A stretch of DNA of 60,262 bases, the filler included, from Basidiobolus ranarum (lineage: Eukaryota), in NCBI GenBank assembly GCA_040143965.1. It is 14 parts of 14 records of this genome, joined end to end, with 100 filler letters (N's around TTAATTAATTAA, not from the genome) between each part and the next. Parts side by side here need not be neighbours in the genome. Positions count along the whole stretch, not along the records: positions 12,985 to 17,204 come from JASJQH010002064.1; 13 more parts are not named here. The stretch is one strand, 5' to 3'. Positions 4,232 through 43,068 of this stretch are shown in pieces. Numbering within the stretch: the first letter of the stretch is position 1; every line of letters begins with the position of its first letter. The position numbers were made by a program, and so were the translations under genes. The notes beneath the pieces are model-generated. The model saw only the letters and a list, made by a program, of their open reading frames with translations, had not been told where the DNA came from and did no database searches.

Positions 4232-4331
4232 NNNNNNNNNNNNNNNNNNNNNNNNNNNNNNNNNNNNNNNNNNNNTTAATTAATTAANNNNNNNNNNNNN
4301 NNNNNNNNNNNNNNNNNNNNNNNNNNNNNNN
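4232..4331. other. Artificial 100-bp contig spacer, first of 13. Others: 8559-8658, 12885-12984, 17205-17304, 21523-21622, 25838-25937, 30147-30246, 34455-34554, 38763-38862, 43069-43168, 47373-47472, 51671-51770, 55968-56067
   Basis: 44 N + TTAATTAATTAA (stops in all six frames) + 44 N, identical each time; lengths of the intervening segments never increase. Confidence 0.99.
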
Positions 4332-7596: not shown

Positions 7597-8558
7597 CTAT
7601 TGGGTCAATTCTTCACAATACGTAGCTGGAATTAAACCAATGTGTTCATCAATTTGAGCTCTCCACCAATTTTCATCTATTTTCTCCAGAATATCTACCA
7701 CCACATCAGCACTAACCGATAGTTCATCCTCTTGTTGAGCTTGGTAATCGTACAAGACTCTAGCGAGGAAAGGTTGCGGGACGGGCGTATCGAGATCGGT
7801 CAATATCTCTTGGGGGTTTAGATCCTCTTGTTCGACATAGCTTTTTGGGAACCATCCCTTTGCCCCGTTACTTTCCAACTCTCCATACCACCAATCGCCA
7901 TCCTCAGCAGATTGAGAAACTTGAATGTAATCATTTTCGAGGAAACCTAAATCATCACCACCTTCTGCTTGATATTCATAAAGGGTTCTTACTCGAAACA
8001 GAACGATTGGCTCGTCTTCAACCACTTCGGTCACTTTCTCTGACTGATTTTGAGATTCTTGGTTAGTGATAGGTTCGGATGGAATGTTGAATGCGTCATC
8101 AAAGGCGGTGGAGTGGTGGGAATCAGTATTTGCGGTTGATTCTGAAGGAATTCCGAAAGCTTCATCAAATTTACTAGTGGGTGAGACGATTTGGTGGGAT
8201 GTTTGTGGAGAAGAAGGAATATTCGATGAGATTGACGAGAAAAAAGAGGATGCTGATCGGTTGGTGTATCCGGATAAGGGGTTAGTATTAGAATTAGTTG
8301 TTTCCTTTTCTACGACATCCCATTCATCATCCTTTGGACTATGAGAGGGTTCAGATGGGGGTTTTGCGAGTTCGGTTGATTGTGCGCCAAAGGATGGTCT
8401 AGTAAACACGTTGTTAGAACGTCCAAGGAAAGCGGGTGTTTTCGATTCAGTCCGTGAATTTGCTTGGAGATTTTTGGCTTTTTCACGGGCAGTGCGTGTA
8501 GCCTCTCGGATAGCTTCTTGCTCACGCTCATGCGCCTCAGTTCTCTCTTGCTCTTCAC
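7597..8558 (-). CDS. C-terminal part of a protein with two tandem SH3 domains (endocytic/actin adaptor-like); 5' truncated
   Basis: RTLYEYQAEGGDDLGF..DGDWWYGE..KGWFPKSYV and RVLYDYQAQQEDELSV..ENWWRAQ..GLIPATYC; frame stays open to the contig end through a coiled-coil-like EEQERTEAHEREQEAIRE. Confidence 0.9.
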
Positions 8559-8925
8559 NNNNNNNNNNNNNNNNNNNNNNNNNNNNNNNNNNNNNNNNNN
8601 NNTTAATTAATTAANNNNNNNNNNNNNNNNNNNNNNNNNNNNNNNNNNNNNNNNNNNNATTTTGCACTCGTCCCATATATTTTATGAAGCGTCTAATATT
8701 TTTTTAAATTGTCTCATTTTAGGCTAAAACACTGTAGGATCCATACATGATAAGATATGCTATCTTCAATCCTGTTTCCAGGCTGTTTGCAGGTAAATAA
8801 ATCTAATGGTAGATGTTCGGTTTCGTGTGATAGAGTTACACAAGCAGTAGAAGAAAAGGGACTGCTAAACCCCGGTGGTAACGGATGAAGAATGAGAATT
8901 ATATGCCGAGTGAGATTTCGTGCGA

Positions 8926-11046
8926 TTATTCGGGCTTCTTTGTATCTCGAACCCACTTGTATTTGTCTATTAACGCCAATGCTTCGTTCAGTAGCTCCAT
9001 GTTGCCGCTGAATTCCAGAGAGCGTCTAACTGCTTCTAATACACGTTGGTTAGGGAATATCTCGTTTTTACGGAAGAGTGGTAGAAGTTTAACCACTTCG
9101 TCGAATAAGCCGTGCTTCGTTAAGATTGAAACATATGTGATCCATAAATTTGGGGTGAAATGGAATTTTTTCTTCACTAGAAGATGCATATTGGTGATGG
9201 CTGCACTCAAATGCCCCTCTCTGTCCCATGACTTCAGTAAAATACCTACGGTGGTAATATCGGGAACAACCTTTAATGTACTCATATCTGACCAAAGGCG
9301 GAATACGGCCATGTCGTCATTGAACGAGAGATTCATGTCCATTAACTTGTTGAATGTATCGAGTGATGGCTTATTCCCAGAATCTTGCATGTCATTGTAA
9401 ACCTTCATTGCATGCTTTGTGTGATTCGAAGCGGCGAATATCTTGGTCAACAGAACGTAAGTGAGACGATCCGGTTTTATGCGCTTACTTTCCATTTCTT
9501 TATAAAGTTCCCATATATATGTTGGGTCTGCCTCCTCATTATAAGCAGCAAAGAGTGAATTGTAAGTACGAACGTCAGGCCTAACTCCATGGCTTCCCAT
9601 ATTTTCAAATAGCTTGATGGCTTGGTTCCAATCTGAAGTCTTACCACAGGAACTGAGTAAATTATTGAAGGTGTATACGTTAGGCTGAACTCCAGAAGAA
9701 ATCATGTCTTCGAAAAGTTCGAGAGTGGCTTTTGTATTTGAAATGGCGGCCATTCCATCGATAAGAGTGGTGTAAATCACAACATCCGGTTGAAGTCCAG
9801 CTGCTTGCATGTCTTTACTCAACTGAACAGCTTCCGAGACATCTCCACTTTTTACTAAAGCATCAATCAAAATGGCATAACTATAGACGGTGGGTGCAAC
9901 GCCACTACTAGTCATTCGACGGAAGATCTTGTAAGCGGTAGCAAAGTCATTCGTTTTGACTGAAGTGTTGATGAATGTTTCGTATGTACGCCCAGATGGA
10001 GTTATCCCTGCGGTTTTCATTTTGTCGAGTGCTACTAATGGGTCTAGATTGGCTTCATGCAGGGTGGTGTGATTTGGCTCTATGTTTGCCATCAGAAGTT
10101 CCTCAAATAATGTTTGACCTAGTTTACGTTTTGAGCATCTACGACACACCCGAAGAAGTGAGTTGTAGGTGGCTAGATCAGGAGTATGTCCCTCATCTTT
10201 CATTTGCTGGAATAAATCTAAAGCTTTATCGAGAGCTTTCGCGTTACTGCAGGCTTTGATGAGCGCATTGTAAATGACAACATCTGGATAAATGCCTGCT
10301 GTTTTCATTTCCTTTTCCACTTGGAGCACTCTATCTAAATCTTTGTCAAAACTGTAGGCATGGATCAATGTACTGTAGGTAAAGTTGTCCGGTTGTACTC
10401 CATCCATCTTCATCTCCTCCAGAAGGTGAGGTATCGCCTTAACTTGCTTATTAATAGTGAAAATGCTTATAAGCGTGTTGTATGTTATAGAGGTAGGTTG
10501 AAGTTTTGCCGCTTTCATTTTGGCAAAGTAGGCCAAAGCTGCTTTGACATCTTGAATTCCACCGAATGCGTGGATCATCAAGTTGTATGTAGCAACATGT
10601 GGCTCCACATAATCTAACTTTGATATGTATTTAAAGACTTCTTCCATTCTTTGGACGCCCAGGAGATTCTTTTGCTTTTTCAAGGCGCTAAGTAGACTAT
10701 TGAATTCTTTTATAGTCAGTTGGTTAGAAGGGTCCTTGGATATAGTCAAGAAAGCCTCATATGCCTGTGCAGGAGACATGTCACGAAACTTGGGCCATAT
10801 TGGAGCAGGTTGGTAAAGCTTAGAGTTTTCGGTCAAAAATTCGGAAGGACGGTCTTTATTTTCTACGTTTTTCTCTTCAACTAATTCACCTTTGTAGGTC
10901 AAGTTAGAGTCGTCGATAATGCTAGAAAAACTACGAAGATTTGTACGAATGATTCTCAGACTTGTTTGAGAAATTGGGTTAATCCTAGAGAACTGTTGTA
11001 ACTGAATCCTTCCCAAACGTCGGTTGAGGATAGAAAATCTATTCAT
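8926..11046 (-). CDS. Pentatricopeptide repeat (PPR) protein, probably mitochondrial, intronless, about 16 P-type repeats
   Basis: 35-aa periodicity such as PDVVIYNALIKACSNAKALDKALDLFQQMKDEGHT; Arg/Ser/Leu-rich, acid-free N-terminus MNRFSILNRRLGRIQL. Confidence 0.95.
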   Translation of the reverse strand: MNRFSILNRRLGRIQLQQFSRINPISQTSLRIIRTNLRSFSSIIDDSNLTYKGELVEEKNVENKDRPSEFLTENSKLYQPAPIWPKFRDMSPAQAYEAFLTISKDPSNQLTIKEFNSLLSALKKQKNLLGVQRMEEVFKYISKLDYVEPHVATYNLMIHAFGGIQDVKAALAYFAKMKAAKLQPTSITYNTLISIFTINKQVKAIPHLLEEMKMDGVQPDNFTYSTLIHAYSFDKDLDRVLQVEKEMKTAGIYPDVVIYNALIKACSNAKALDKALDLFQQMKDEGHTPDLATYNSLLRVCRRCSKRKLGQTLFEELLMANIEPNHTTLHEANLDPLVALDKMKTAGITPSGRTYETFINTSVKTNDFATAYKIFRRMTSSGVAPTVYSYAILIDALVKSGDVSEAVQLSKDMQAAGLQPDVVIYTTLIDGMAAISNTKATLELFEDMISSGVQPNVYTFNNLLSSCGKTSDWNQAIKLFENMGSHGVRPDVRTYNSLFAAYNEEADPTYIWELYKEMESKRIKPDRLTYVLLTKIFAASNHTKHAMKVYNDMQDSGNKPSLDTFNKLMDMNLSFNDDMAVFRLWSDMSTLKVVPDITTVGILLKSWDREGHLSAAITNMHLLVKKKFHFTPNLWITYVSILTKHGLFDEVVKLLPLFRKNEIFPNQRVLEAVRRSLEFSGNMELLNEALALIDKYKWVRDTKKPE

Positions 11047-11574
11047 TATTATTGAAGTCAAAGAGTGTAACTAGGAAGGAGAATCAATGTTACAGCAAAA
11101 TCAATCTTTGAGAACACTTTGACAGGCTTAGTGAAAATTTTCATAAATCATCTTTAATCCAATATAAAATTGTAAATGGCATTGCGGTAAAGATTAATTT
11201 CTTAAATAAGAAAATATTGCCTTCAAAAATGCCAAACATAGAAATATTCACTCAATTACTCGAGATTACACAAGGACTGGATAAAGTTAAGATGTTGAGA
11301 TTTATCCATACGATTGTTTGCCTGAAGTGAAACCTCTCGGGTAACGGAGGGAAAAAATTGTAAAATCGTGCAAAACTGGCTGAGATTTCAAGGTTGATTT
11401 TTTAGGAAACATAAAATACCAACTGATTAAAATGGTGGTTTTTAGTGAGAGACGCTTTGACAATATAAAGTGCTTGTTTTAGTAAGGCAAATACAAGAGT
11501 CGTTGAAATTAGAACTTCAGTCCACTTTTACCACTCAAACTGATATTTGGAAAGCATATTTTTACCATTCTATC

Positions 11575-12884
11575 ATGTCAACCTTCCCAGTCGCCGCTCA
11601 ACTTTGTGCACATAAAACAACTAAAGCATATTTCAATTTTCTTGGCAGAAGACTATCGACCATCACTTCTAGTGCTCTCCTTAATAGACGTGTGCTCTCT
11701 AACTCTAGTGTTTGTCGAGGTAGCTTATTGGTTATATTCTGTGATGTTTTCTACGGACCCGGTTTTCTTATATCGCGTATTCTCAATTTATATGTATAGA
11801 AACTACCTATGTTTTTGGTTCAATTCCCAGTGTAGCAAATCAAAAGGTAAGCCTATTTTAGTTGCATTACAGTTGTGCATATTTGGGTATAATTAACTAA
11901 CAATTTTGTAGAGTCATTTTCATAGCACCGGTAAAATTACTGAAAGAAAACATCCATTTCTTGTTTGTATACTTACCCTATTTTGGTTTAGCCCCGGCTC
12001 AAGAACAAAAAGAGGATGCTTACGATCTTCTCGGTGTAGCTCGAAATGCCGCTCAATCTGACATTAAGAAAAGTTACTATAAGGTACTTCGGTTCTTTCG
12101 TCCAACATATACCAACTAAGCTAATCAATTTCTCTGGATAACACTTTGCCAGCTTGCTAAAAAATATCACCCAGATACAAACAAGGATAAGGCAGCTCAG
12201 GATAAATTTGTAAAAATACAAGAAGCTTACGAGGTACAAATTGACCACTGATTTTAATAGCGAAGAATACATGAATATCCCTTACTAAATCTAATTTTAA
12301 AGATTTTGTCGGATGAACAAAAGCGCGCATCTTATGATCAATACGGTCACGCTGCATTCGATGGTAATGCACCACCCGGTGCGGGCGGCTTTCCTGGTGG
12401 TGGCTTTCACGACTTCAACGCTGATGATATATTTAGTCAAATGTTCGGCAAAGGGTTTGGCAGAGGAGGTAACCCAGCTAATCAGTTCACAGTTGGTGAC
12501 GATATCCGAGTGAATTTAGCTATTGATTTCTTGGAAGCAGTCAAGGGGACTACCAAACGAATCACTGTATCACCAGTCAGTGTTTGTGATCCTTGTCATG
12601 GAGAAGGTTTAAAGAGTGGTAAACAAAAAGAAACATGCAAAGTATGTGGTGGTACCGGGCAGACTACTTATTCCATTGGTATCGGAATGATTTCCAGCAC
12701 ATGTAACTCTTGTTCCGGTTCTGGCAAGAATATCCCCCCTGGTAGCCAATGTCCTACCTGTAATGGTGTTGGTAGAATCAAAAAACCCAAAACAGTCAGT
12801 GTTAATATTCCTGCTGGTGATGATGAAGGTGTGCAGATTCGATTGTCTAATGAAGGTGATATACCGGAAGTTGGGAAAGGTACC
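11575..12884 (+). CDS. MDJ1: Mitochondrial type I DnaJ/Hsp40 (Mdj1-like), multi-exon, 3' truncated
   Basis: Presequence-like exon 1; J-domain split over exons ([23 protein letters not shown] / [11 protein letters not shown] / [15 protein letters not shown]); G/F region; four CxxCxGxG motifs. Confidence 0.9.
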
Positions 12885-12984
12885 NNNNNNNNNNNNNNNN
12901 NNNNNNNNNNNNNNNNNNNNNNNNNNNNTTAATTAATTAANNNNNNNNNNNNNNNNNNNNNNNNNNNNNNNNNNNNNNNNNNNN

Positions 12985-14675
12985 TATCTACTTTTAACGA
13001 AGCTTTCAAAGAAGATCAGCCCTGGAGTCATTCATCTCAACATCACGAATTACAACTTGATAGCAACCAAGAGTTCTTCTCTGTCACCTCAGATGAAACA
13101 GATGGTGAAGAAGTTGTTGCTTTCTTGAACAGTGACCAATTCCCTGATAGTCTTCTTCCCTCTAAAGATGTTTTCTCGTCTGATGAGGATACATACAAGG
13201 ACTGGCTAACGGAGTTTGATCAGACTCAATCTGACAATACAGACACACAACAGATTGATGGTGACGATGTAGTTGCTTTTCTTAACAGCTCACATTTTCC
13301 GAAAGAACTCTCAAGTGCTCCAGAAGACATGTCTTCATTAGAGGAGTTATGGAATGATTCCTTGACTAAAGAATGGGCGTCTGAATTTTCTGAGGCTAAC
13401 AGTGCTATTGATAACAAGTTAGTGGAATCCTCTAACTCAATAGAGGGATGGTTGGAGGAATTTAATAATGAAAGCGTAGTAAGCAAAGGTCTTGAGAGAG
13501 CTTTCGATGTAGATACTGATTTCGGAGACTACGATGGCTCAGTCAACTATTTGAACCAAAAGTATGGAAAAGATGCGAGCATTGTCGTAGATGGTGCTGA
13601 AGTAGTTGAGCTACTTGGTGCAGGTGCATTTCCATTCGAGCTTACGCCTGATGTCACGGACCTAGATGAGATATCTGAGTTGGAAATGAATGTAGCCGAC
13701 AATTGGTTTAACGAGTTTCAGCAATATGATTTCGATTCACAACAAGCGAGCAATACCATCGCTGAAGATGCCATATCATTTTCTGACTTTGAGAATGATA
13801 TCATTGAAGACTGGGGTCATCAACTCCTTGATCTACCATATCTAGAAGAAGATGTATTATCTGACCTGAGCGAGTCTCGCCCACCTACTCCTCCTGATGG
13901 TTTTGAAGTAGTTGCGTTTTTGGACCATTCAAACTTCCCAGCGGAGCTGACCAAGGTACCAGAGTTCCTCACTAGTGATGCGGTCAAAGTATATTCCGCC
14001 GAAGAAGAGCAAGCCAACCAGTCTCATTTACAACGGTGGCTAGACGAATTCGAGGATAATCAGGATAGCACTAAAGAAAATCCGATATCTGGTTGGATGA
14101 GTGAATTTTCTGAAATTCAAGATTTATTACGCCAGGAGATTGAGTATACTGAAGAGAACGAAGCAGACTTGTTCAGCGAGATACCGTCAATAGGCTCTTC
14201 TATGGCTTATGAGCCTTTGGCCTACCGCATGGATTCTCTCCCTAAAGAAAGCTCGGGCATTTTTGATAATTGGACGAAAGATTTCCTGAAAGCAGAGCTT
14301 ACAGACAACAAATCAATCGCTGATTATGGAGACGATCACATTTCTTCTGAGTTGGATGCCCAATGGAGGAGCAATTTGGATAACTCACCTAATCAAATCC
14401 TTATGTTGGATAAAAAAGAGTCGATTGAGTCAACCATCAAAGATCTCATCAAGGAAATTGCAAACGAAATTACGACAGAAGAGTTCTTGTGCGGCTTCGA
14501 TTATCATGGGTCCTATGGTAGTGTCCCAGATACATATGGAGTGCCTATTCAAACATTCGATTTAGAAATTGCCAAACCTGATTTTGACGAAAGGGTAACT
14601 GTTAGTTCCGAAGCTACCAAGAAAAATGCTCTTGATAGACTTCGACAGTTAAGAAAGCATATTCTTGGTCAGTAG
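12985..14675 (+). CDS. Acidic repeat protein with multiple WxxxF motifs (resembles the Pex5/Pex20 N-terminal region, no TPR); 5' truncated
   Basis: Frame open from 12987; WLTEF, WASEF, WLEEF, WFNEF, WLDEF, WMSEF, WTKDF; four DGxEVVxxL..FP repeats; ends RLRQLRKHILGQ*. Confidence 0.8.
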
Positions 14676-15832
14676 ATTTGCTACAAGCGACTATTTTCTC
14701 GTGTTCACAATGTATATCAGTGTTAAATCTGATATTAACAATAATTATTCAACATTTTTTGAATGCAGCAACTTCATTTCTCCACGTTGTTTACGGTTAT
14801 CATACCCACACTTTATTTGTACATAACATTTGTGTTCTATAGCAGCGTGTCTTTAAGTGAATATCAATAAAAGAAATTACCAACAAATAATTATTATGAA
14901 AACCATGAGAGTTGCTTTACCTGGTATCTGCTATTTATAACCTTGGTTCTATTTCTTTCCGATATAGCCAAGTACAGGATGTCCTGTATAACTGGATTCA
15001 CTAAACTCCTGCACAGCCTGGTTATGAGAAATGTCTCTAGAATCTAGTGGAGCTTAGGGGCTGTCTTATTTAAGGCTTAGTAACAACATACTAACTACCA
15101 TTGGCTATATTGAGTGATTTTAGACTTGACTGTTAATCTACGAAGTCACTTATATCAATATGGCCCCAGGAATATAACTCACGAGGACAACCCCCACATA
15201 TGTACAGTATCACCACATACAGCTTCCAGGATGACTTTGATGCTATATATTGTTCTAACTGGATTGACGTGCTTCTCGTACTTGCAAGAGAAATCTATGG
15301 TTTTTTATGCAAAGGAATATAACTAATATATTGAACTTTAATATGATTGAATCGCATTTGTGCAAATGTCACGGATATAGGGACAAATGTGTTGGTTGAG
15401 TTCCATTGAATCATCTAACGGAGACTATCACAGTGTTTCGCACGTTCAAAAATGCGCATTTTCTGTCATGGATTATTTGAAATACTCAATCAATTGCTAT
15501 TTTTAATATAATGTTTCAAGTTTTTTATGAACCAAAGTCTAAACGAGTTTGAATAGAATTTCAAAAGGGACACCCCTTAAAGTAAACCCTGCACAGCTTG
15601 CAGTCTCCAACCTCAAACTCACGCTTTCCATAGTAGATATTGATAGCAGTAATCAAACAAAAAGACCACGAGCTCTTCTATGGTTAAGACGAACCTTTTC
15701 CAACAGAAAACAAATAGAAGCCTTTGTCCCTTTACTCCTTCGTTCCTTGTCATTTTATGAAATCTTGTGGATAAGAGTTCTTCTGATTTAAATACTGTAT
15801 TCTTTCTTGTTGTAGCTTTATCTTTCATAATT

Positions 15833-17204
15833 ATGGGCGTAAAGACCTATCAAACCACGGAGTATTCTTCTAGTGTCGATTCCTCTCCAAATATAGAAGA
15901 GCAAGAGCCAACTAATATTGTACGCGATGTAGTGGAGACTGATCATGCATCACTTTTATCGTTGTCTAGCTCCCCTAGGGAATCTAATGAAGACACGTTT
16001 AACTCGCACTTTCTAAAGGGTGTAAGCGGGGATATTTCGCATCGCTACCAAACTTCCTTACCCTCCCAAGTCGAAAAAATTATAGATGCCTCAGCTGTTT
16101 CTGTAGGAAATGAAACATTTCTGAAAAAAATGTGTCTGAACTTGTTTTATATATTTACTTGGTAAGTACCTATATTATATATATGTTCTGTCTTTCTGGA
16201 AAATTAACTTTCCCACTACAGGTATATATTTTCCACGGGAATCTCCTTGTACAATAAATGGATGGTCGATATAAACCATTTTAATTTTCCCTATCCATTG
16301 TTTATCACGTCGATGCACCAAGTCATGCAATTTGTGTGCTCCGGCCTGTGTCTTTTGATTTTCCCTGCCTTGAGACCTAGCAAGCATCCTTCCAGAGGAG
16401 ACTACCTGTATGTGTACTTGCATAATTAATGACACACTAATTATTTTCTGATATTCTCCTTAACAATATAGCTCTAAAGTTGTTCCGTGTGGAGTGGCTA
16501 CCGGTTTTGACATTGGACTATCCAATTCTAGTCTCAAAAGCATCACCTTATCATTTTACAGTGAGTACTCGAAATCATTCGAATCTAACTAGATAACCCA
16601 CTAATCAGATCAACTTGAAAATTGTAGCGATGTGTAAATCTTCATCCTTAGCTTTTGTGTTAATGTTTGCATTTATGTTCAAGTTGGAGAGGCCGACGTT
16701 CTCATTAATCGGAATCATTCTTATAATTTCCTTTGGAGTTTTATTAATGGTCATGACTGAGACATCATTTGCACTTATCGGGTTAGTATAAGTAATGCTA
16801 CCAAGAGTGGAACGTTTAATCTAATTGTTGTGGTACATTTGTTTAGATTCATTCAGGTTATGACTGCTGCTCTCCTTGGTGGGTTACGTTGGTCTTTGAC
16901 CCAAATCCTCCTGAAGAAAGAATCCATGGGACTTCACAATCCAATGGTCACAATTTTTTTCTTGGCCCCAATCATGTGGGGATCGTTGTTAATTTGTGCG
17001 TTTTTCGTTGAAGGACTTGGAGACATGATGAGTTCTCCATTCTTTGCCGACTTTGCCACTTCATTTCATACCATGCTTGCTATTCTCCTTGGCGGACTAA
17101 TGGCTTTTCTTATGGTTTCTGCTGAGTTTATGTTAATTTCTCGTACCTCAGTCGTAACTCTTTCTGTAGCCGGTATCTTCAAGGTACCCAAGAGTAATTT
17201 TATG
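15833..17204 (+). CDS. Triose-phosphate/nucleotide-sugar transporter family protein (SLC35C2/Ymd8-like), multi-exon, 3' truncated
   Basis: WYIFSTGISLYNKWM..FNFPYPLFITSMHQVMQF; VVPCGVATGFDIGLSNSSLKSITLSFY; GGLRWSLTQILL; SVVTLSVAGIFK; first coding intron 16162-16221. Confidence 0.9.
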
Positions 17205-19100: not shown

Positions 19101-21366
19101 CTAGGAATGTGGGTTCTCTTTGGATTCAATAGTTGCTGGTGTACTAGGAATATCAACGGTTAAGCAAGAAATCATATCTATCAATTCATTCTTGTTGTAA
19201 GGCTTCGTAAGATATGCGGTCATTCCAGCTTCAATAGCAAGCCTTTTATACTCCGTTCGAGCATTCCCAGACACGCCAACAATGGGTATCGGGGAGGATC
19301 CTGACGCCACTTCAAGTTGACGTATGTGTTGAGTACATTCAAGACCTCCCATAACTGGCATTTCCAGGTCCTAAGCATATCAAGATTGGTTAATATTACA
19401 AGCCCTCCATAAGATATTGTTGGTGGCTTACTACCATTATGATCAATGTGAAATTGCTAGTTTTCAACAATTCAAGGGCTTCAAGGCCATGCTTAGCAAC
19501 ATCTACAGTGTATTGGACTGCTTCCAGTTGCCGCCTTAGCACACGTTGGTTGATGAGATTGTCTTCTACAACCAGAATTTTTTTCGATGCAGTTGAAGGT
19601 GTCGATATGTCATCTTTCTGACTCAACAATGTTTTCGCTGAAACCTTTCTCAATGGCGATTTTTTCCCTTCAGCTGAGCGATTTAATTCGCCTGCAGCTT
19701 TCTCTATCCTCCTATTTGGCTCGCTTATTAACCTCATTTTATCATCATCCTTGGCCTTTTGTTCCGCTTGTAAGGTTTCCTCCTTGCTTAGACGTTCACA
19801 TTGAATAAAAAACGAAAATGTTGTTCCGCTACCTTTGACGGAACTCACTTTGATACATCCACCGTGCAATTCTACAAGCCTTTTACTGATGAATAGCCCA
19901 AGGCCACTCCCACCAAATTCCGCATACGTCTTTGGACTAACTTGTGTAAAGCGGCGAAATAGAGATGCTTGTTCCTCAGAGGTCATACCTACTCCACTAT
20001 CTCTTATGGAAATCTCTATATACACAGTATTGGGTGACGCAGGTTTAAGCTGTCGATCCCTGTTGCGATCTCCAGGTGTATAACTGTTGATGTGTTGAAT
20101 GGTTCCTGTTGAAGAAGTGGAGCTGGAAATTGAAATGGAATCGAATTCTTGATCTGAGATTTCCAGCTCATTGTTGTCATTTTCAAATTGTGTCGAAGAG
20201 TACGGTGGACTGTCATACGCTTCGAGAGTGACCGTGATTTGTCGCGATGAAACCTTCTCAGTAAACCGTATGGCATTCGTCAAGAAATTGATCCTAATTA
20301 GATGAGTAACGTCAGGAGACTGATCTGTGCTCTTACTGTACACGCTACATGAGGAAACTTACAAAACTTGGGAGAGTCGAGTCGGATCACCTTTAACCCA
20401 ATTTATATTGATCTTGGAGTACCCTTCGGCAACCTTGAAGTCCATATCGATGCACTTAAGCTTGACTTCTGTCTCAAACATACGCAGTATGTTAGCGACT
20501 ATAGCATGTGGTTGGAGATTTGCCTCGGCAAGAACCAACAGATTCATATTTATCTTGGACATGTTTAGCACATCATCAGCAATTTTCTAAGAAACATGGC
20601 AATTTTGCTTTAGCGCCTGGTCTGATGAGATTGTACCTGCATTAATTTAGTTACCTTTTGATGCTGCGCACATAGGCTTATTGTTGCTACAGCGTCGAGA
20701 TCGTTTTTAATCTCAGCATTCAGCCATTTCATTACTTTCTTGCCACTTTCTCTCTGTAAATCCCGTTGAACCTTTTCAAGACTTTCGGAAAGGAAATCAG
20801 CGTTATGGTAAATTCCATTCAGCGGATTACGTAGCTCATGGCAAGTCATATCAATGAAAAGTTCCTGTTGCCTCTTGATCTCTTCGGCATCTTCGGCACG
20901 TCGTCGTTGCTGTCTCTCAGCGAGTTGCAAAGCGGATAAACGCTCTTTTTCTAGTATTTTCCTCTCCGTGAGATCCGTGAGCGTGCCTACAAAGCCATTA
21001 GGTTTGGCTTGATTGTCGTACTCCACAATCACTTCCCCTGGAATAGTAATTAGAAGATTGCTCGCTGATCTAAATTTGCTGTACAATGGTGAGCTTACCT
21101 AGACACCATTTGGTTTCACCAGTTGCTGAATTCCATCTGAATTCTATTACAAAACCCTTAGTCATCCGGATGTGTTCAGCAAATATCTCTGTAGCACGTT
21201 CACGATCCTCCGGATGAACGCTTTTTAAATGTCAATAGTAATTCCTAGTACAGACTCAAACTAAGATTCAAATTACCTTGAAATAAAGCCCAGTGCGCTC
21301 TGGTCCTTCCTTAGGTCATAGCCAGATATTTCCCACCATTTATCGTTTGTGTATGTTATGCGTCCC
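19101..21366 (-). CDS. Hybrid histidine kinase (PAS/PAC - HisKA - HATPase - receiver), multi-exon, 5' truncated
   Basis: GRITYTNDKWWEISG and HPEDRE (PAS); FIDMTCHELRNPLNGI (H box); NFLTNAIRFT, DSGVGM, GGSGLGLFIS; ILVVEDNLINQRVL..IIM/DLEMPVMGG..YLTKP. Confidence 0.95.
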
Positions 21367-22594: not shown

Positions 22595-24975
22595 TGCCCA
22601 GTTCGTAACTGGCGGTATCACCAAATCTCTTATCCGAAAACAAAGTTGATGCGGCCAGAATTGCTTTACAAAAGCCCCACAGTGGATGTGCAATTGACAA
22701 TGCGTTCGATGAGTGCTGCTCATAAGGACGAGACTCTCAATATGTCACTGATGTTGGTGGTCAGATGTCTCAGACACTAAAGACCGAAATCTTAATGAAA
22801 TAGCCGAATATTAATCTCATTCAATATATATTTTGCTTTAATTATGAAGTTCATAAATTCATTTTCTCATATTTGATCTTGTACAAAATAAACATAATTT
22901 AATCAAATTATTAATTCCAGAACATGTGAGACAGGAATATTGGACTCACTTGCGCGTAGAAAGTCAGAATCTATTCGAGATTAGGTTTGTTTTCCAGTGT
23001 AACAGGCAAACTGTTGCTGAGTTAACTTTGGTAGCCAGTTTCATAATAATTCTCCACTTTTGTGATACTTTTATTAGTGATATACCATTAAAAATTCACC
23101 TTCTGGATTCTGTTTCTCATTAATCTAGATTTGACCATATTTAGGTTTTCCACATACGTAACCCGAATTCACAAGTTTCATTGGTGTTTATTATGGCAAT
23201 TTATCCAAGATTCCCGTAACGAATAACGAATTAGGATTGTTTAGCGAGTATTATGGAAATCTTCTCCATTACTCGATCTAAATTGGCATAAAATATTCAT
23301 GTATTGATTCTATTATATAAAATCACTCAATCTTCGAGAGTTTCGAGTTTCTAAAGTTTCTAGAGCCACTTATTTAGGCTAAATATGAAATTATTCCAGA
23401 ATCCCAATATGGGCGATACCTTTGGTTAATCAATGCCTATTTACTGGTAAATTATTTATTTTTATAGGTATCGTGGAGATTGATGTTCTAGATTTACTAA
23501 TTTGAGTTTACCAGCTTTACGTGCAGGTACACGGTAAACACGTTTTTCTTACGGTATCCAAATTATTGGTCTAAACATTGCCATATGGCATATTAGCGGA
23601 GTCAATAAAGATATTGAAATACACAATTCAACTTCATTTCCTATGTCCTTCATGTTGTGATTTTGCTCTAACCTCATACATTAGTAATTGCAATACTTTC
23701 AATTTTTACACTTTCGTGTTTTCTCGGGGAATTTGGCGTAAACAAGCACGGTAGTATGGTTTTCCGCTACGGCTCCTCATGTCATCTGGAACAGGAGGTC
23801 TAGCTGATTTGATTTTTATCCTATTGGTGGCTTGATCGACACACTTGAAGCTGGACCCGTCGCTAACAGATTAAGATTCAGTCTTCTGTGAAATAGCTTT
23901 CTTTACTGGTATAGTTATTGCCTTCGCAGTTACTTGGAGGTATTATCGAATTGTGGTGATTTTACAAAGAATCCCAATTGAATATTCTCATCTACATTGG
24001 TGATTTTCGCGTCCAACGTCGAAACATATAACCATTAAGATAGTCGTCATCATAGTAGACAAGTGGATCTTCGGTCAAGTGTTCTTCCAACAGATTACAA
24101 ACAGTATTTGAATATCATAAATTCAAATCCAGTCCTAACTCGTTGAATCACAAATGTGATTTGATTCATAAAATTCCCTATCACCTGCTGGGATTGAAAA
24201 AATCTTCGAATCCAGACCTTTTATTGGGATGGAATATTCGAACATAGCATTTCTTATATAATCGTGTCTCACTTATCACTAAAGGAAATGGATTTATGGG
24301 TAGTGATGTTTCATGTCCCAATAGGGTAATTCATTCTGATGTTAGCAATTTTCGCGTTGCAAGGTGTTTTAGGTACCGTTCTCTTGGTTACCGGAAGCTC
24401 GGAAAGAGTAGTGGCAGAACAATTCTTAGTATTCAATGACATTTCAAATAGTATTTGTATATGTCATTCTAAATAGCAAATACTTACAACACTAGCAATA
24501 AATTGATGAGTAATAAGTGTCTAAATACAAGGAATAACCCTAGAAATTACTCCAACTCTGGATACTATACTAAATTATTGCCCAGATTTCACTGAACCAG
24601 ACTTCTAAAAATCCGTGCTAATAGTCCTTTTAAAGCAACCGAATCGTTTCCGTATGCATTGACCCATTTAAATGAAAATTCAACATCAATGTAACTAGAA
24701 AATCCCAATCTGTTAGTGCTTATTTATTTGGTAATAAATGAGGCAATTTACTAATTTGTTAAAGAATTTGTCCTCGCGGTTAATCTTGGGTATTTTAGTT
24801 TACATGGGTCTCCAGCCCTAGTTCGTCGGAGATTCTGACCGAGGGATGAGCGTAACATCAGTGATATAAAAATGGAACATGTATTACCTACAACCACAGA
24901 TCGAAATCCAACTATCCTTCTATAATAACTCTGAGAAATCCCTTCCTTGGCTTTGCTGCTTGGATTACTTCTGCT

Positions 24976-25837
24976 ATGTCTCCAATCACTTTAAACGAAA
25001 GACAAATGTCTGCTCTAGTTGACCTAGAGTCTCAATTCAAACTTTCCGAGGAGAAGCTCAGAGAGATAGTTGACACTTTCATTGCTGATATGAAAAAGGG
25101 TTTGGCCGCACCAGGTGAAGCTATGGCTATGATTCCTTCTTTCGTAACTGGTAGACCAACTGGTCAAGAAACCGGTTCCTATTTGGCTTTGGACCTTGGA
25201 GGAACCAATTTCCGTGTTTGCATGGTTGAATTGAAAGGAAACAGTCAGTTCTCTATTTCACAACACAAATACACCGTTTCTGACGAACTGAAAAGTGGTG
25301 ATGGTAAAGTTTTATTCGATTTCTTTGCCAAGTGCATTGATGACTTTATTACTTTGCGTCCTGAGACCGAATCTCTTCGCCAAGCTGCCATTGTTCCTCT
25401 TGGTTTCACCTTTTCTTTCCCCATCGATCAAACTGCAATCAATCGCGGTAAACTTTTGACCTGGACTAAGAGTTTCACTGCCACCAATGTGATTGGCTTT
25501 GATGTGGCTCACCTTCTTCAAGATGCTTTGAACCGTAGACATTTAAGCAACGTTAAAGTTGCTGCATTAGTTAACGATACCGTAGGAACCCTTCTTGCTG
25601 CTGGTTACGCTGAGCCCTCCACTACTTGTGGTGTCATTTTTGGAACCGGTACCAATGCCGCATATATTGAGCACGTTAAGGATATTCCCAAGTGGACTGG
25701 ATCTCAGGAAGATGCTGAAATGGCCATTAACATGGAGTGGGGAGCTTTCGGCAATGATAAAAAAGTTCTTCCCGTTACCCAGTACGACAACCGCTTGGAC
25801 AACACTTCCCCAGAGCCATTCCACCAAGTGTTTGAGA
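24976..25837 (+). CDS. Hexokinase, 3' truncated
   Basis: MIPSFV, LALDLGGTNFRV, LGFTFSFP, VNDTVGT, IFGTGTNAAY, INMEWGAF. Confidence 0.97.
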
Positions 25838-31413: not shown

Positions 31414-33362
31414 TCACCAACTCAATAAGGTCATTACGTCTTTCCAAATAAGATCCTTGCTATATACAGATTCCTCTGAGAAAGACAGATATTTTTTGGG
31501 TAACGACAATGTAAATTCCAATGGTTGACTGAGGTTTTCAAAGCTTACAATCTGACGGATTGGGAAATTCAAATCCCCTTGAAACACTAGGGGTTTGGGT
31601 GTGTCAACATGATCCTCTAATTCCAATGATTTGATGGTTTGAATCAAATTACTCAAGGAATATACTTGTCCACCAGTCGAACCAACCATAGAACTTGTCG
31701 CGTTGGTAAGCCCGCCAACAAATACGGATTCCACATTGTGAATCTCAGTCAAATATCGAGCAATTACAGCACAAGTAGATACACATAGACCGTTGGTGAC
31801 TACCACCATATTTTGGCTCTCATATATTGGGATTCCTATTGAATTGACAAGATCAAATTCGTAAGAGCAATAATCCGAAAAGGTCCGCGAAAATCTTGCA
31901 CTTTCGTCATCAATCCAACTAGAGTTCTTGTACATCTCTCCATCAGAAAAGTCAGTCTTCGTTTGTGGAAGCCATACTCGCCCGCCTTCGTTTTGAAGTG
32001 AAGCCTTCGAGGCTAAAGCACGTGCTAGATTGGTAGATCGTACGTTTGTAGGGTAGAAATGGGACCCGGGGAATAAAAAGTTGATCAACTGATAGCCTGC
32101 GCAGATGTTTCCACCATAATTATCACTCAGGTCCTACAAGAGAGAGGAAGTTAATAAAGGTTTTCTTTGGGAGAAAGAGTCTACATTCTTACCAAGATGA
32201 TTTTCTGAACTCCCAACGATTGAAATTGTTGGAATCCTTCTTTCAATGCATTGAAGAAGTCCAACGCGTCATAGTATGTATTAAAATTCTCTGAAGCGAT
32301 GGCGATTGTTCCAACTCCATTCCCGGAAGTATAGAATTTCACCTGCGTACCATTCGATGTGGAGAATTTGATGGGATTCATAAGACGCCGAGTATTGTCT
32401 GAAGGAGAAATTGCTTGCAGATTGGATACCGTTAAATCCTTACTCTCATCTGTGACTGGCATGGTTGGTTGGGTTGACAATTCGCAGAATAGTTGACGAT
32501 AGGAGGCGGAGTCCGTAAATGTCGCTGGCCAGTTATTGATTGTCGCTAACCAAGGGACTTTTATAGATATAGGTTGGTTGGTATTGGGTGAAGCGACGGT
32601 GAATTCTATGTAATTCTTTGGTGGAGTGACAGTACGAAAGGCAAAATCTCCCGGGATTAGGCCATATGTATCCTTACCAAATATCACTCTTGCCAATGCC
32701 TGGTTGATGCGTACAGATGGTACTTTTCCATTGTAAATGTTTTCATTAGCAAACTTGATTATTGCCTCCATGGGCTCTAGGCCATCAATCTTTAGAACCT
32801 CACTGCCAGCGTAATAGTTCAAATCTAATCCGGAGATACTTGAAAACAAGTAGCTGCTTGTCTCATCCGTCAGCAACTGTTTGGTGATTTTGACTTTCTG
32901 CACATTATTTTCCACTACAGAGACCAAGGAAAAAGGCTGTCTAAATATGAATGTCGAGTAGCAGGTCGGCTTGTAGACGAGATGGCCGTCATAGACACTG
33001 GTAAACAATTGGATCAGATCTTCTTGAAATTCCCTCTCCGTAGTATAATTTTTGATTTCGATCTGATTCAATTCTTGAAACAGATTGATGCGAGGACCAG
33101 TGCTGACTGCCTCGTCAAACACATAGAAATCCAAAGTTTTACGCAATGTGTCAAGAGTCTGTACGCGCTGGGATGGGATAAATGGGAACGAACTCATACA
33201 CTTCACAACAAGGTCATAATGTACATAACCGACGTTTCTACCAGTTGCTACCTGCGCACAATAATCTATAGGCTGCGTATCTTGGAACGACGAAATGACA
33301 GGGACAGATTGAATGAAATTCACACTCAGTGCCAAGCATATACACAAGAAAGAGTACATCAT
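31414..33362 (-). CDS. Secreted S41-family (tail-specific/CPAF-like) peptidase; two exons (33362-32193, 32133-31414)
   Basis: Signal peptide MMYSFLCICLALSVNFIQS; YDGHLVY; PDZ-like GSEVLKIDG; KIIL/DLSDNYGGNIC; VVTNGLCVSTCA; GGQVY. Confidence 0.88.
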
Positions 33363-34960
33363 GAGCACACACCGTCGATTAGACGAGATAATGGTAACGT
33401 AAAGAAGTCGAGTGAGCTTAGAAGTGGCGTTCTCGATGCCATTTATATAGGCACGTTTTTCTGGATGGAAAATCAGTGTAGATTTCTGTGAATGCTCGGA
33501 TAAATCGATGCAGCGGATCTTTCTCAAATGAATCTCGAACCTGGTACAAGGGGCATGGGATTGAAGAATCATGTTGAAAGGATGAATTTCATTTAATTAT
33601 CTTGACAATCCGAACTAAGTCTATTTTTCAACATGGAAAAGGCTATAATCAGAAGCCCGTTGATTCCAAAAATAACCATTTCTAAGCGATTCTAGTCAAT
33701 GGGAGGTGATTCTTTTGTTTTGGGTATTGTTCCTAGATGCATTTAATTGGATGTGCTTGGTCATTGAAAGAATATTTGGGTAGCCGAGTCCTCAGGTAGC
33801 TTACCAGTATACCACACTAAAGAGGCCGATTTAAAACAATCATTTGTAAGGGATATTTTGGTTAAATTTGGCTGAACCGGGGCCAATAACGCTTCATACA
33901 TGTGTCACATTTCTCCCTCCATATCGAATGATGTAGCAGAGTTGTCATGTGCAAATCCAAATTACTGTGACGATGTATATGAATGGCGGTCAGATATTTA
34001 TAACTTTGATTAAGGAAACAATCGACCCTGGTGTTGGATAATATCGTCAAGACAGAGGCCGCTTGGGCGACAGATCTATTTCTGCCTTGGTCCCTATACC
34101 TAGCCAATATCAAGATCAGGAAGTACTTGTTTTGGCATTCAATAGCTTCTACTTTTGGACATGTCGATAGCAGTCACACTAATTTTCACTGTCTTGAGCT
34201 CCCCTCGTATCTCCAGACGCGCTGGAATTACTGGCTGGAATCTAGGGCATGTACAAATACGGGAAGACTACTAATGTTGACGAATGAAATGTACGCGCCC
34301 TTGAAGTTGATTGCTCATAGGTGTGGTTAGTCATGGCAGCTGTCGCGGGCCAACTGATTCTCAAACGGGACTGGATTTACGGAAGATCCAAACTGGCCGT
34401 TTATTTAACTGTTCAAATAGTGGTGGGTTAGATTAAGGGAATTGGGGATGGGATNNNNNNNNNNNNNNNNNNNNNNNNNNNNNNNNNNNNNNNNNNNNTT
34501 AATTAATTAANNNNNNNNNNNNNNNNNNNNNNNNNNNNNNNNNNNNNNNNNNNNGTGTACCGTATTTGATTTAATGGATTAGCGTGCCAAAATCACCAAG
34601 AATATTGATTATAAAAGATGTTTAGTTAATGAATAGGATATACATGTTATTGAACAAGCCCAAATTATCTCTAGAATAAATATCACTTTCTGATGCTAAT
34701 TTTTCACATCTCCAACAAGTATACTGAAAACAAGGGAAGAAAAACGAGGAATGGGTAGATCAAAATAAACGACTGAGGAAGGATGAGAAATAATATCGTT
34801 CCGAAAAGTACAAAAAAGGCCATAAAGTTGTTGTTACAAGAAACAAAAAACTAACGTGAATGTAAAATGGGAATATTTGGGAGGGAATGGAGAATGGTAG
34901 ATGGTGTAGTGGAAAGAATAGATCATTTTCAGCTGGAGTCAGGGAGTAGAGCCGTTTCTT

Positions 34961-37495
34961 TTACGCTTCCATGTTCTGAGCTTCTGGTTCGTTTTCCAGT
35001 TGTTTTTTAGCTTCTTCTTCCTCTAACTCCTTAAGCCTGGCTGTCTCATACTGATTTGGTCCCTGATCTCTGACACATAATTTGTATCCATCTAGTTTGT
35101 ATCTGACTAGAGTGGGTGCTCTTAATTTAAGGCTGATTTTTCCAGCAGGGTTGACAGAGAAGATCTGCGCCATTGGCAAAATGGTTAAGAATCTTGAGAT
35201 ACTACGGAACCAGAAATGAATCAATTTTTTGTATGAAGACTGTTCTCCATGATGGTCTGTGTATTTCAAGGATTCCAAAGCTCTGTACACATTTGTGGTA
35301 GTCAGCTCCATACCATCTTTAATCTTCTCGAACATTATTGTAGCAAATGCACGGACATGTTGAGCATCATACACGTTTCTGGGGAGACCAGAAGGATTTG
35401 GGTAAACCACATGTGGTTTTTTTGTTCCTTCTTTGTGATTCGACAACAGCTCCTTGGCCTCCTCAAAGGTGTTCACTCTAAGGGAAATCATACTTCCATC
35501 CAGTCTAAAGACGCTGCTCATGGGCTCGGTTTTCAAGGCCTGGCAAATACCGCCAAACTCACGCTTAAAGAGACAACCGATTTGCGTTAACTTCTTCTCA
35601 GCATCTAGGTATTTTGTAGCTGGTGGTGGGAAGAGTTGGAAAATATCTGCCGTTGTCTGGGGTCCTTGTTCTTTAATAACAGTAAACATTGTAAGAAGGC
35701 GCTCGATCACAACATTACGAGTGTACTCCTTTGTGGATGGATCGACAAATGTATCCAAAGCACCCTCCATATGGTCGGGTGAGCCCATTAGGCAGATCTT
35801 GACGTTACCAATGGGCTTCACATCCTTCGCCTTCATGGTGTCTTCATAAGATTTGAAGATAATATAGGCAGTACCACTGGATTTGTTCAAGGTAGAATTC
35901 ATCACGACCATATCTTGAACGTTATCCATGTGATCACCAAACATTTCTTTAATGATTTTGGTGATATCTCCACGTGTCTGGTACATAGGTAGATCAGACA
36001 AGAATATAGTGTTGGCCATGTAAGTGTTTCGGGAGCATTTTTTGAACTTGACAGCCATCTCTTCGGGTGCTTTACGCTTACGGCCATTGGCAGTAGGGGC
36101 ATGCAAAGCAAGAGAAGATTCAACATCAGCTATACTTTGACCCGTAAGTTCAGCCAGATATTTAGCGTCACGCACGTCTTCCTTGGGCTTGCTCAAATCG
36201 GCGGCATCATCCATCACTTCATCCACAGTTTCAGTCATTACTACTGGCTCGGACTGTACTACTTCCTCTACGGTTTCAGTCATTACCACTGGCTCAGACT
36301 CGACTATTTCTTCCACCTCTGGTTGGACTTCAGTGGGTTGAATGTTCACTACTCCTTCAATGAATGGGGTTCTTCTCTCTTTCTTAGCTGTAGATCTAGC
36401 CTGTCTCTTTGGTGTTCCCTTTCTGGGGGTTGAAACGTTAATCAAGGTCTCGGAGATGACCATATTCTTGGGTTTGATTGGAGAAGACTTGGATGCCCAT
36501 GGCAGCTCATTGAAATCAGTGTCTGGTGAGGTTTCAACTGTTTGCGACTGATTAGTACCTTCTTGGCTGATGTCCTCCTTACTGGTTTGTGTCAAGACAT
36601 CATCAGTAGTGTTCTCATGGCCAAAGCTTTGAATTGCCGCCACTGGGGTGACCATAGGACGAGTCTCAGGAGCTTTACGGGTAACCAAAGGAGTTCTTTT
36701 GCTGCGAGTACTTGGTTCTACAGAAGATAAACGAGATCTAGTAGCAGTCTGAGAAGGAGTGTCCCTGATTGACGCTCTTGTGGCTCTTACTGAAGATTGT
36801 ATCTCAGGGATATCGTTGCTAGATTTTCTAACGCTTGACTGAGGAGTAGAAAGTGGGCCAGCGGTTCTCTTGGTCATAAGGGAGGTTCTTCTTACAGTGC
36901 TAGTAGTAGTAGTTGTAGAACGAGTTGTGGAAGGTTTGGTTTCTTGGGTACCTAAGGAAGCTCTAGTAGTACGTGTAAGAGGCTTAGTTTCAGTAGTGCT
37001 AGTGACTCTTGTGGAAATAGAGGTTCTTCTTTGAAGTGGTTGAAGTGTGGTAGCAGCCACTGCTCTAGTCTCACCAGTAGCTGAAGTTGCAGTAGCAGTA
37101 GCAGTTCTTCTAGGAGCTACTGAAGTTCTTCTGAGGGGTCCCTGTGCACCAATTGATGACACTCTAGTTCTGGTAATACCTTCTTTAGCGCTATCAACAG
37201 TTGAGGTAGGAGCTCTACTTCTAGCTAAGGGTTCCCGGGGAGTTTCGGTGGCTTTACCATCGGCACCAATGGTTCTGCTGCGCAACACTCTAGCCCCAGG
37301 AGTAGCTGTAGTTTTGTTGGCGGTAACTCTGGAACCAACGGGAGTTGAATATCTTGAGGGAACATCAATAGGAGCCCCTTTTCTAGGAACGCTCGAAAGA
37401 AGGCTGGGGTCTTAAGAATAAACGAAAATATGTCAACGATACATACGAAATAAAGGGAAATTATAATTGAACTTACTTTGGTTAGATTCGGACAT
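34961..37495 (-). CDS. Putative RNA-binding protein: basic T/S/R-rich N-terminal arm, acidic linker, RRM, two winged-helix/LOTUS-like repeats; exons 37495-37477 and 37410-34961
   Basis: 775-aa ORF extended in frame by a GTAAGT..TAAG intron to MSESNQN; RNP2-like TIFLSDLP and RNP1-like SGTAYIIF; NLS-like GRKRKAPEEMAVKFKK. Confidence 0.8.
36217..36318 (-). repeat. 45-bp coding tandem repeat, about 2 copies (EEIVESEPVVMTETV / EEVVQSEPVVMTETV)
   Basis: Direct duplication visible in both DNA and protein. Confidence 0.85.
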
Positions 37496-41863: not shown

Positions 41864-42271
41864 GGTTTTAGAAACATGAAGAAAGTGTTAGAAGAGCGTA
41901 AAATGAAGTTTTCCATGATTCATGAGACTGATCGTGCGTATCCGAAATAGAATATCATGGATCTAATCAAACACCAGGGTTGAACCCACGTGAAACCGAA
42001 ACACTAGAGCGTTTCAAAAGCAATCGGATTTCACAATGTTTGGAGGAGTTGGGTAACAGTCTACTTCCAAACGTTTTAAAAGATGTTCTTCAAATATTTG
42101 AAATAACAAATTGCTTGACGAGAGTGAATGAAATCCCTAATTCTCCCTAATTCTACAACGAGATCAATTCATTCGAGATCGGGTTTCAGATTTCTCCTGT
42201 CCATTTATATTTATAAACTCTTCCCTCCTGGATTTTATTAGAAGACAACAGTTCTCATTTACCTGTCAGTC

Positions 42272-43068
42272 ATGAAACTTCATCCTCTAAGTTCACAGGG
42301 AAGGAGTTGTGGACTGCGGATACTCCACACAATTGCCACCCTGGTCATTGTGGGAAGTTTTACTGATCTAGGTAAATTTGTTACTGCTCAGTACACTTCT
42401 AGTTATGGATCTGTTGACCAATCCGATCGTAATGGGCAATCTGATCGTTATGACCAAGCCTCTCAGAGTTCCACGGATTCTGGTTACACATCTTCCAGAA
42501 ACTCTTACGGTTCTAAGGTTAAGAAGATTTATCGACCTGGCAAGCAAACTGTGAAGAAAATTTATAGACCTGGTAAGATCACCAAAAAGAAAGTCTATGG
42601 GGGTGAGACCATCAAGAAGATATATAGGCCTGGTAAGATTACCAAGAAGAAGGTTTATGGCGGTGAAACCATCAAGAAAATCTATAGACCTGGTAAGATT
42701 ACCAAGAAGAAGGTCTATGGGGGTGAGACCATCAAGAAGATATATAGGCCTGGTAAGATCACCAAGAAGAAGGTTTATGGCGGTGAGACCATCAAGAAGA
42801 TCTACAGACCTGGTAAGATCACCAAGAAGAAGGTTTATGGCGGTGGAACCATCAAAAAGATCTATAGACCTGGCAAGATTACCAAGAAGAAAGTCTATGG
42901 CGGTGGAACCATCAAGAAGATCTACAGACCTGATAAGATTACCAAGAAGAAGGTTTATGGCGGTGAAACCATCAAGAAGATATATAGGCCTGGTAAGATC
43001 ACCAAGAAGAAGGTTTATGGCGGTGGGACCATCAAAAAGATCTATAGACCTGGTAAGATCACCAAGAA
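42272..43068 (+). CDS. Probably secreted, highly basic Lys/Tyr/Gly tandem-repeat protein; 3' truncated
   Basis: Hydrophobic N-terminal segment ending VTA-Q; S/Y/D-rich spacer; then repeats of G(E/G)TIKKIYRPGKITKKKVYG; TATTTATAAA about 60 bp upstream. Confidence 0.85.
42517..43068 (+). repeat. 60-bp coding tandem array, at least 8 units, running into the contig end
   Basis: Successive 60-base lines 42601-43068 are in register; differences are mostly at third codon positions. Confidence 0.97.

Follow-up and report, generated by a model that had tools for sequence, protein, structure and literature searches.

A disordered acidic Basidiobolus protein with a conserved W-x-x-E-F array, compared with the peroxisomal import receptors

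WxxxF receptors and the Basidiobolus array

In a 60,262-base window of DNA from Basidiobolus ranarum (the window being the whole stretch that was analysed), a long open reading frame (ORF) encodes a very acidic protein with an array of WxxxF motifs, whose closest described counterparts are the peroxisomal import receptor PEX5 and its fungal relatives PEX18, PEX20 and PEX21. The N-terminal domain of PEX5 is described as a disordered chain in which WxxxF/Y motifs (in human, W1-7 and LVAEF) are interleaved with conserved amphipathic helices (PMC8086558), and the positively charged surfaces on the PEX14 N-terminal domain and the PEX13 SH3 domain are binding sites for acidic helices of the WxxxF/Y and FxxxF types (PMC11024197). 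By themselves, WxxxF/Y motifs drive a protein into the PEX13 YG phase, and no other feature is strictly conserved across the import receptors; in many fungi, import by the peroxisomal targeting signal of type 2 (PTS2) is carried out by PEX5 paralogues that lack the tetratricopeptide repeat (TPR) domain (PMC9795577). PEX20 is described as a fungal split-off of the PEX5 N-terminus, and what defines PEX20, PEX18 and PEX21 is a conserved Cys in an N-terminal motif, together with WxxxF/Y motifs and a domain that binds Pex7 (PMC8172628); PpPex20 has three Wxxx(F/Y) motifs (PMC2063535). In a review table, the only named peroxins marked with WxxxF are PEX5, PEX9, PEX20 and PEX21 (PMC10822820). Our own literature search for TPR-less or novel WxxxF proteins found only the known PEX5, PEX9, PEX18, PEX20 and PEX21, and a search for this protein or for Basidiobolus peroxins, supplementary tables lying outside it, found nothing on either; the one paper returned for Basidiobolus and peroxisomes was, by its title, unrelated.

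The ORF sits on the fourth of the 14 pieces that make up the window (12985-17204, 4220 bp). No stop interrupts it between the piece's first full codon, at 12987, and a TAG at 14673-14675, and its 5' end is missing because the frame runs off the contig edge.

12987..14675, plus strand: 5'-truncated ORF of 562 codons plus TAG, the C-terminal half of an acidic, disordered, Basidiobolus-restricted protein of about 1090 residues

We searched 1.84 billion cluster representatives exhaustively with phmmer (E up to 0.001), and three proteins were returned: the window's own truncated model and two uncharacterised Basidiobolus hypothetical proteins. The first of these, a 1090-residue protein of B. meristosporus CBS 931.73 whose model comes from a 261-kb contig, matched at E 1.3e-151 with 50% identity, residues 4-561 of the window protein corresponding to its residues 517-1090; it is referred to below as the orthologue. 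The second, a 522-residue B. ranarum protein (E 6.7e-6), covers the N-terminal region of the one from B. meristosporus in the alignment, its model stopping after two repeat units. By these alignments, the window ORF is the C-terminal half of a protein of about 1090 residues so far seen only in Basidiobolus, a genus placed in Basidiobolomycota. This weakens the first-pass annotation of the DNA in one respect. The public gene model on this piece has 448 residues and begins at the internal Met115 of the open frame; it is itself 5'-truncated, because the 114 codons upstream (12987-13328) are open and homologous to the orthologue. The missing N-terminal half was found on none of the 14 pieces by tblastn with the orthologues. 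As the family comprises three members from one genus, the conservation statistics given below rest on one full pairwise comparison.

The seven WxxxF motifs and three WxxxL variants (the latter at 13350, 13812 and 14364) that the first-pass annotation had listed were all present. The motifs and their neighbours are as follows.

13203..13217, plus strand: first WxxxF, WLTEF (WLAEF in the orthologue)
13350..13388, plus strand: WNDSL, then the second WxxxF, WASEF, at 13374 (WNSSL and WSTEF in the orthologue)
13449..13463, plus strand: third WxxxF, WLEEF (WLKEF in the orthologue)
13704..13718, plus strand: fourth WxxxF, WFNEF (identical in the orthologue)
13812..13826, plus strand: WGHQL (a full WxxxF, WDHQF, in the orthologue)
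14037..14108, plus strand: fifth and sixth WxxxF, WLDEF at 14037 and WMSEF at 14094, within the best-conserved block NQSHLQRWLDEFED..GW.SEFSEIQDL; the model blocks of highest confidence (predicted local distance difference test, pLDDT, 52-55)
14271..14285, plus strand: seventh WxxxF, WTKDF (WTRDF in the orthologue)

Phenylalanine or leucine stands at position +4 for 10 of the 11 tryptophans of the protein. Composition-preserving shuffles contained 0.67 WxxxF motifs on average, and seven were reached in 1 of 20000 shuffles. All seven motifs retain both W and F in the orthologue, and tryptophan is the best-conserved residue (9/11, against 287 identical residues among 551 aligned overall). The WxxxL variants fared differently: one becomes WxxxF (WGHQL to WDHQF), and WRSNL is not conserved. 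Full-length B. meristosporus protein carries 12 WxxxF motifs and the 522-residue B. ranarum fragment four; across the 23 motifs of the three Basidiobolus proteins, position +3 is E in 19 and D in two, giving W-x-x-[ED]-F in 21/23. These results show that the W-x-x-E-F array is real, statistically in excess and conserved, and the WxxxF motifs appear, by this comparison, to be under selection.

The protein around the array is as acidic as first described, with 129 D+E and 34 K+R among its 562 residues (net charge -95). AlphaFold2, run on the 3-sequence alignment, gave a mean pLDDT of 35.9 for the window protein and 32.7 for the full B. meristosporus orthologue and predicted a folded domain in neither; short helices alone were predicted, over the W motifs, over the VVAFL of a second repeat described below as motif A, and over two C-terminal segments (residues 470-494 and 542-560). 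The models are weak evidence, yet they agree with the composition. No hydrophobic stretch reaches the length needed to cross a membrane (the highest Kyte-Doolittle mean over 19 residues is 1.4). The ORF protein is a strongly acidic, intrinsically disordered protein without a folded domain, and its conserved parts are short peptide motifs. Besides the block at the fifth and sixth WxxxF motifs, these conserved parts include LSESRPPTPP, MLDKKxSIxSTIKDLIxEIANEI and the terminal TKKNALDRLxQLRKHILG.

Our best single reading of these data, which we hold tentatively, is that the Basidiobolus protein may be a lineage-specific multivalent ligand of PEX14 and PEX13, acting as the N-terminal half does in PEX5 or PEX20. 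The reading is based on the excess of motifs (seven WxxxF against 0.67 expected), on their conservation, and on a disorder that matches the description of the PEX5 N-terminal domain. At the level of sequence, the motifs belong to the W/F-x-x-x-F/Y class of amphipathic helices in an acidic context. The basic groove of the PEX14 N-domain, or else the PEX13 SH3 domain, would be the docking site of each acidic diaromatic WxxEF helix; the array would drive partitioning into the PEX13 YG phase, and the protein as a whole would be a ligand that contacts the docking and translocation machinery of the peroxisome multivalently.

Comparison with PEX5 and PEX20

The PEX5 N-terminal domain (PMC8086558) and the Basidiobolus protein are both disordered acidic chains with multiple W-x-x-x-F helices set between other conserved amphipathic helices, and multiple WxxxF/Y motifs in a disordered region were found both in the window protein (seven) and in the orthologue (12). 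The Basidiobolus protein differs from PEX5 in having 12 motifs at full length and an additional motif A, and in lacking the TPR cargo domain, the N-terminal Cys and detectable homology. Since the C-terminal TPR domain, which in PEX5 binds the type 1 targeting signal, is absent, the protein is not PEX5. Pfam found no TPR in the ORF, as the first-pass annotation had read it, and none in the four downstream plus-strand ORFs tested on the same contig. Could this be an ordinary PEX5 with its TPR domain encoded by an exon further downstream or elsewhere in the assembly, on a different contig, given that the assembly is fragmented? The annotation had itself raised splicing to a TPR domain, and we found nothing of the kind. 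The TAG stands one codon past the last residue of the B. meristosporus orthologue, which, on its 261-kb contig, ends one residue earlier; because the orthologue has the same basic helix and the same end point, a TPR domain cannot be spliced on. The missing portion, moreover, is the N-terminal half and not the C-terminal half, and an ordinary PEX5 is practically excluded.

The first-pass annotation had also proposed looking for the conserved N-terminal Cys of PEX5 and PEX20, and this residue is absent: cysteine occurs in the B. meristosporus orthologue only at 201 and 497, and the 522-residue B. ranarum N-terminal model has none. Neither an N-terminal ubiquitin-acceptor Cys domain nor detectable homology connects the protein with PEX5 or PEX20. 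No relatives were added by word-seeded searches, whether the query was the ORF (at E limits of 0.001 and 10) or the first 520 residues of the orthologue, and two metagenome scans gave 599 and 273 pattern matches, none of which was confirmed. Pfam assigned no family to either orthologue, the ORF giving only four sub-threshold chance matches. PDB sequences, queried with the ORF, with the profile of the three sequences and with the last 108 residues, gave nothing relevant (the sole match was D-glycerate dehydrogenase, E 1.3), and the ESM Atlas gave no usable match to the whole ORF or to residues 455-562.

Two conserved helices lie near the end of the protein.

14403..14489, plus strand: conserved amphipathic helix 1 (MLDKKxSIxSTIKDLIxEIANEI..E.FL), by alignment; predicted helix at residues 470-494, low confidence
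14616..14672, plus strand: conserved basic C-terminal helix TKKNALDRLRQLRKHILGQ; predicted helix at residues 542-560, holding the PTS2-like nonapeptide at 14637-14663

PEX18 and PEX21 carry their Pex7-binding domain at the C-terminus, and by analogy the conserved C-terminal helices of the Basidiobolus protein could be a domain of this kind. PEX20, PEX18 and PEX21 also share with it the lack of a TPR domain and the presence of WxxxF motifs. On these grounds, the protein might be the PTS2 co-receptor of Basidiobolus, a PEX20 that has diverged and become greatly expanded; it would then be a special case of a PEX14/PEX13 ligand, with the C-terminal helices binding Pex7. A TPR-less chain with WxxxF motifs and a conserved helical module at its extreme C-terminus does match PEX20 as described, a split-off of the PEX5 N-terminus (PMC8172628). 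The defining N-terminal Cys domain, however, is absent from both proteins that have an N-terminus, no similarity to the Pex21 chain or another PDB chain was found at E <= 10 beyond the chance match above, and size and motif number lie far outside the family, all of which makes an expanded PEX20 clearly unlikely. The first-pass annotation did not recognise the architecture among named peroxins; this did not hold, as TPR-less PEX5-like proteins are already described in PEX18, PEX20 and PEX21 (PMC9795577, PMC8172628). The architecture is closest to this known PEX20 idea and differs in the defining features, so that the Basidiobolus protein is neither PEX5 nor a typical PEX20.

The last part of the protein is its only basic one, as had been noted: each of the eight 15-residue segments with the most positive charge lies inside residues 541-562, and the sole net-positive stretch is the last ~20 residues. 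It includes RLRQLRKHI (14637-14663, residues 551-559 of 562), which the first-pass annotation called a near match to PTS2 and for which it asked about conservation in homologues. The peptide is indeed conserved, as RLQQLRKHI at the matching end of the orthologue. The conserved terminal block is an 18-residue basic helix, longer than the nonapeptide, and conservation over 18 residues is what is expected for any functional terminal helix. The PTS2 consensus is (R/K)(L/V/I)x5(Q/H)(L/A), or R(L/V/I/Q)xx(L/V/I/H)(L/S/G/A)x(H/Q)(L/A), where the fifth residue has to be hydrophobic (PMC4585086), and neither form has a match anywhere in the ORF protein. As in a PTS2 signal, RLRQLRKHI is a helical nonapeptide with R-L at positions 1-2, a hydrophobic fifth residue (L) and H at position 8; it differs by R at position 6, I at position 9 and its site, which is at the C-terminus and not at the N-terminus ahead of an unstructured linker. 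When I was allowed at the last position, the relaxed pattern occurred somewhere in 7% of shuffles of the ORF protein.

The annotation had suggested that this peptide mimics PTS2 in the PTS2 groove of Pex7, as a decoy, recycling factor or piggy-back signal. In favour of such a mimic, R, L, L, H and I occupy positions 1, 2, 5, 8 and 9 of a predicted helix that the orthologue conserves, and PEX39 offers a precedent for a non-cargo amphipathic helix on the PTS2/receptor face of PEX7, together with an RPWE motif (PMC12173945). The Basidiobolus proteins differ from PEX39 in that the [RK]PW[ED] motif, the KPWE-like second Pex7 contact, is absent, and PEX39 is not described with a WxxxF array in that paper. 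Failure of both consensus forms, the frequency of the relaxed pattern in shuffles, a C-terminal position where PTS2 signals are N-terminal, and a conservation that extends over 18 residues further lower the likelihood of a mimic, which we regard as very improbable. Of the first-pass interpretation, the TPR-less conserved WxxxF array (7/7 kept) has stood, while its PTS2 reading is weak and its architecture is not without precedent.

Motif A and the partner of the arrays

A second repeat, overlooked by the first-pass annotation, alternates with the WxxEF motifs. This motif A, DGx[DE]VVAFLNxxxFPxEL, occurs in four copies in the ORF.

13101..13154, plus strand: motif A copy 1 (DGEEVVAFLNSDQFPDSL)
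13257..13310, plus strand: motif A copy 2 (DGDDVVAFLNSSHFPKEL), which also aligns to both B. ranarum copies
13590..13643, plus strand: motif A copy 3 (DGAEVVELLGAGAFPFEL)
13896..13949, plus strand: motif A copy 4 (DGFEVVAFLDHSNFPAEL), with the conserved LSESRPPTPP just before it

The full-length B. meristosporus protein has six copies and the 522-residue B. ranarum fragment two. Over the 12 copies of the three Basidiobolus proteins the broader form is DGx[DE][VI][VI]x[FL]LNxxxFPx[ES]L, with D, G, L, F, P and L invariant in 12/12. In 11 of the 12 copies a WxxxF follows 34-48 residues after motif A; the twelfth copy is at the end of the 522-residue B. ranarum model. The DNA copies are only 72-85% identical, with the peptide kept, and the motif A copies are old duplications preserved at the peptide level. 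If the array that it accompanies engages PEX14 and PEX13, motif A would be a new short linear motif awaiting its partner. We judged by eye whether the motifs could be read as IQ, clathrin-box, LC3-interacting (LIR), SUMO-interacting (SIM) or Atg11-binding motifs, and none of these fits all copies. A six-residue stretch of the Pex7-binding region of human PEX5 may resemble the start of motif A.

Under the proposal that PEX14 and PEX13 are where the array docks, a cargo or a regulated partner would be bound by the C-terminal helices and perhaps by motif A as well, Pex7 being one candidate. As it lacks the recycling cysteine, the protein would not go through the cycle of a canonical receptor. Several observations weigh against this proposal. 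Homology to any peroxin was not detected by Pfam, PDB, phmmer, word-seeded searches to E 10 or the Atlas; no cysteine lies within the first 60 or the first 200 residues of either protein that has an N-terminus; and the [RK]PW[ED] (KPWE-type Pex7) motif occurs in none of the three Basidiobolus proteins. WxxxF motifs number 12 in the full-length protein, and PpPex20 has three (PMC2063535). Short motifs of acidic and aromatic residues are used in other systems too. At 1090 residues the protein is about three times as long as a PEX20-type protein, and we know of no counterpart of motif A among the known peroxins.

A partner outside the peroxisome has to be considered. It is quite possible that the WxxEF and motif A arrays dock an adaptor, an autophagy protein, a SUMO-type partner or a transcription co-activator, and that the likeness to PEX5 is convergent or coincidental; this is the main rival of a PEX14/PEX13 ligand. 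Besides the lack of detected homology to any peroxin, it is favoured by motif A, which is not a known peroxin motif and is as strictly conserved as WxxEF, and by the confinement of the family to one genus, which is typical of fast-evolving disordered scaffold proteins. On the other hand, W-x-x-[ED]-F in 21/23 motifs, within short predicted helices and an acidic context, is the published type of PEX14/PEX13 ligand. Nor are we aware of another system in which an i/i+4 Trp-Phe pair is found in arrays of this kind, which counts against a non-peroxisomal partner.

A more specific form of the docking proposal, which we consider somewhat unlikely, is that the protein is a new peroxin, Cys-less as regards receptor recycling, TPR-less and with 12 WxxEF motifs. 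It would enter or occupy the PEX13/PEX14 translocon without the usual recycling and act as a gate or regulator, a one-way carrier or a tether, motif A and the basic helix holding a lineage-specific partner such as Pex7. If the array does engage PEX14/PEX13, this would be the first protein with the docking code of the receptors minus the cargo domain and the recycling cysteine. It would then offer a natural test of the claim that WxxxF motifs alone suffice to bring a protein into the YG phase, and an example of the way in which import into peroxisomes has been altered in a fungal lineage that diverged early. If the array binds another partner, it would caution against taking WxxxF arrays as diagnostic of peroxins.

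Layout of the window and its other genes

The window consists of 14 pieces of 4195-4231 bp each, placed by falling size and parted by 13 identical joints (44 N, TTAATTAATTAA, 44 N), for example at 4232-4331, 8559-8658 and 12885-12984. The linkers introduce a stop in 6/6 frames. Because the pieces are unrelated contigs, gene neighbourhood across the joints is meaningless.

12885..12984, no strand: artificial contig joint (N44, TTAATTAATTAA, N44) ahead of the ORF; its left flank belongs to another contig

A DnaJ-type chaperone gene at 11990-12884 (plus strand), with a J-domain exon, an intron, a CXXCXGXG zinc finger and DnaJ_C, is cut by its contig end. It was rejected as an upstream neighbour of the ORF, since it belongs to piece 3, a different contig. 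On the same contig as the ORF, downstream of it, three ORF pieces at 15761-17204 (plus strand) resemble exons of a multi-pass membrane protein; Pfam matched none of them above noise.

On the minus strand, 8929-11070 encodes a 714-residue pentatricopeptide-repeat protein (PPR_2, E 2.7e-95) that probably binds RNA in mitochondria. An ORF at 7600-8556 (minus strand) has a charged N-terminal stretch followed by two SH3 domains, and having two makes it unlike PEX13. A fragment of a hybrid histidine kinase, with HATPase_c and a response-regulator receiver, lies at 19399-20358 (minus strand). The long minus-strand ORFs at 34964-37411 (816 residues) and 32184-33596 (471 residues) matched no Pfam family at E up to 0.001. 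Both strands are open at 42242-43066, where a short basic peptide unit (GLVRSP.RR-like) is repeated, resembling a tandem repeat at a contig end. The plus-strand ORF pieces at 93-560 and 57683-58012 resemble fragments of retrotransposon pol and may be such fragments. A hexokinase gene at 24865-25836 (plus strand; Hexokinase_1, E 4.7e-76) runs off its contig end.

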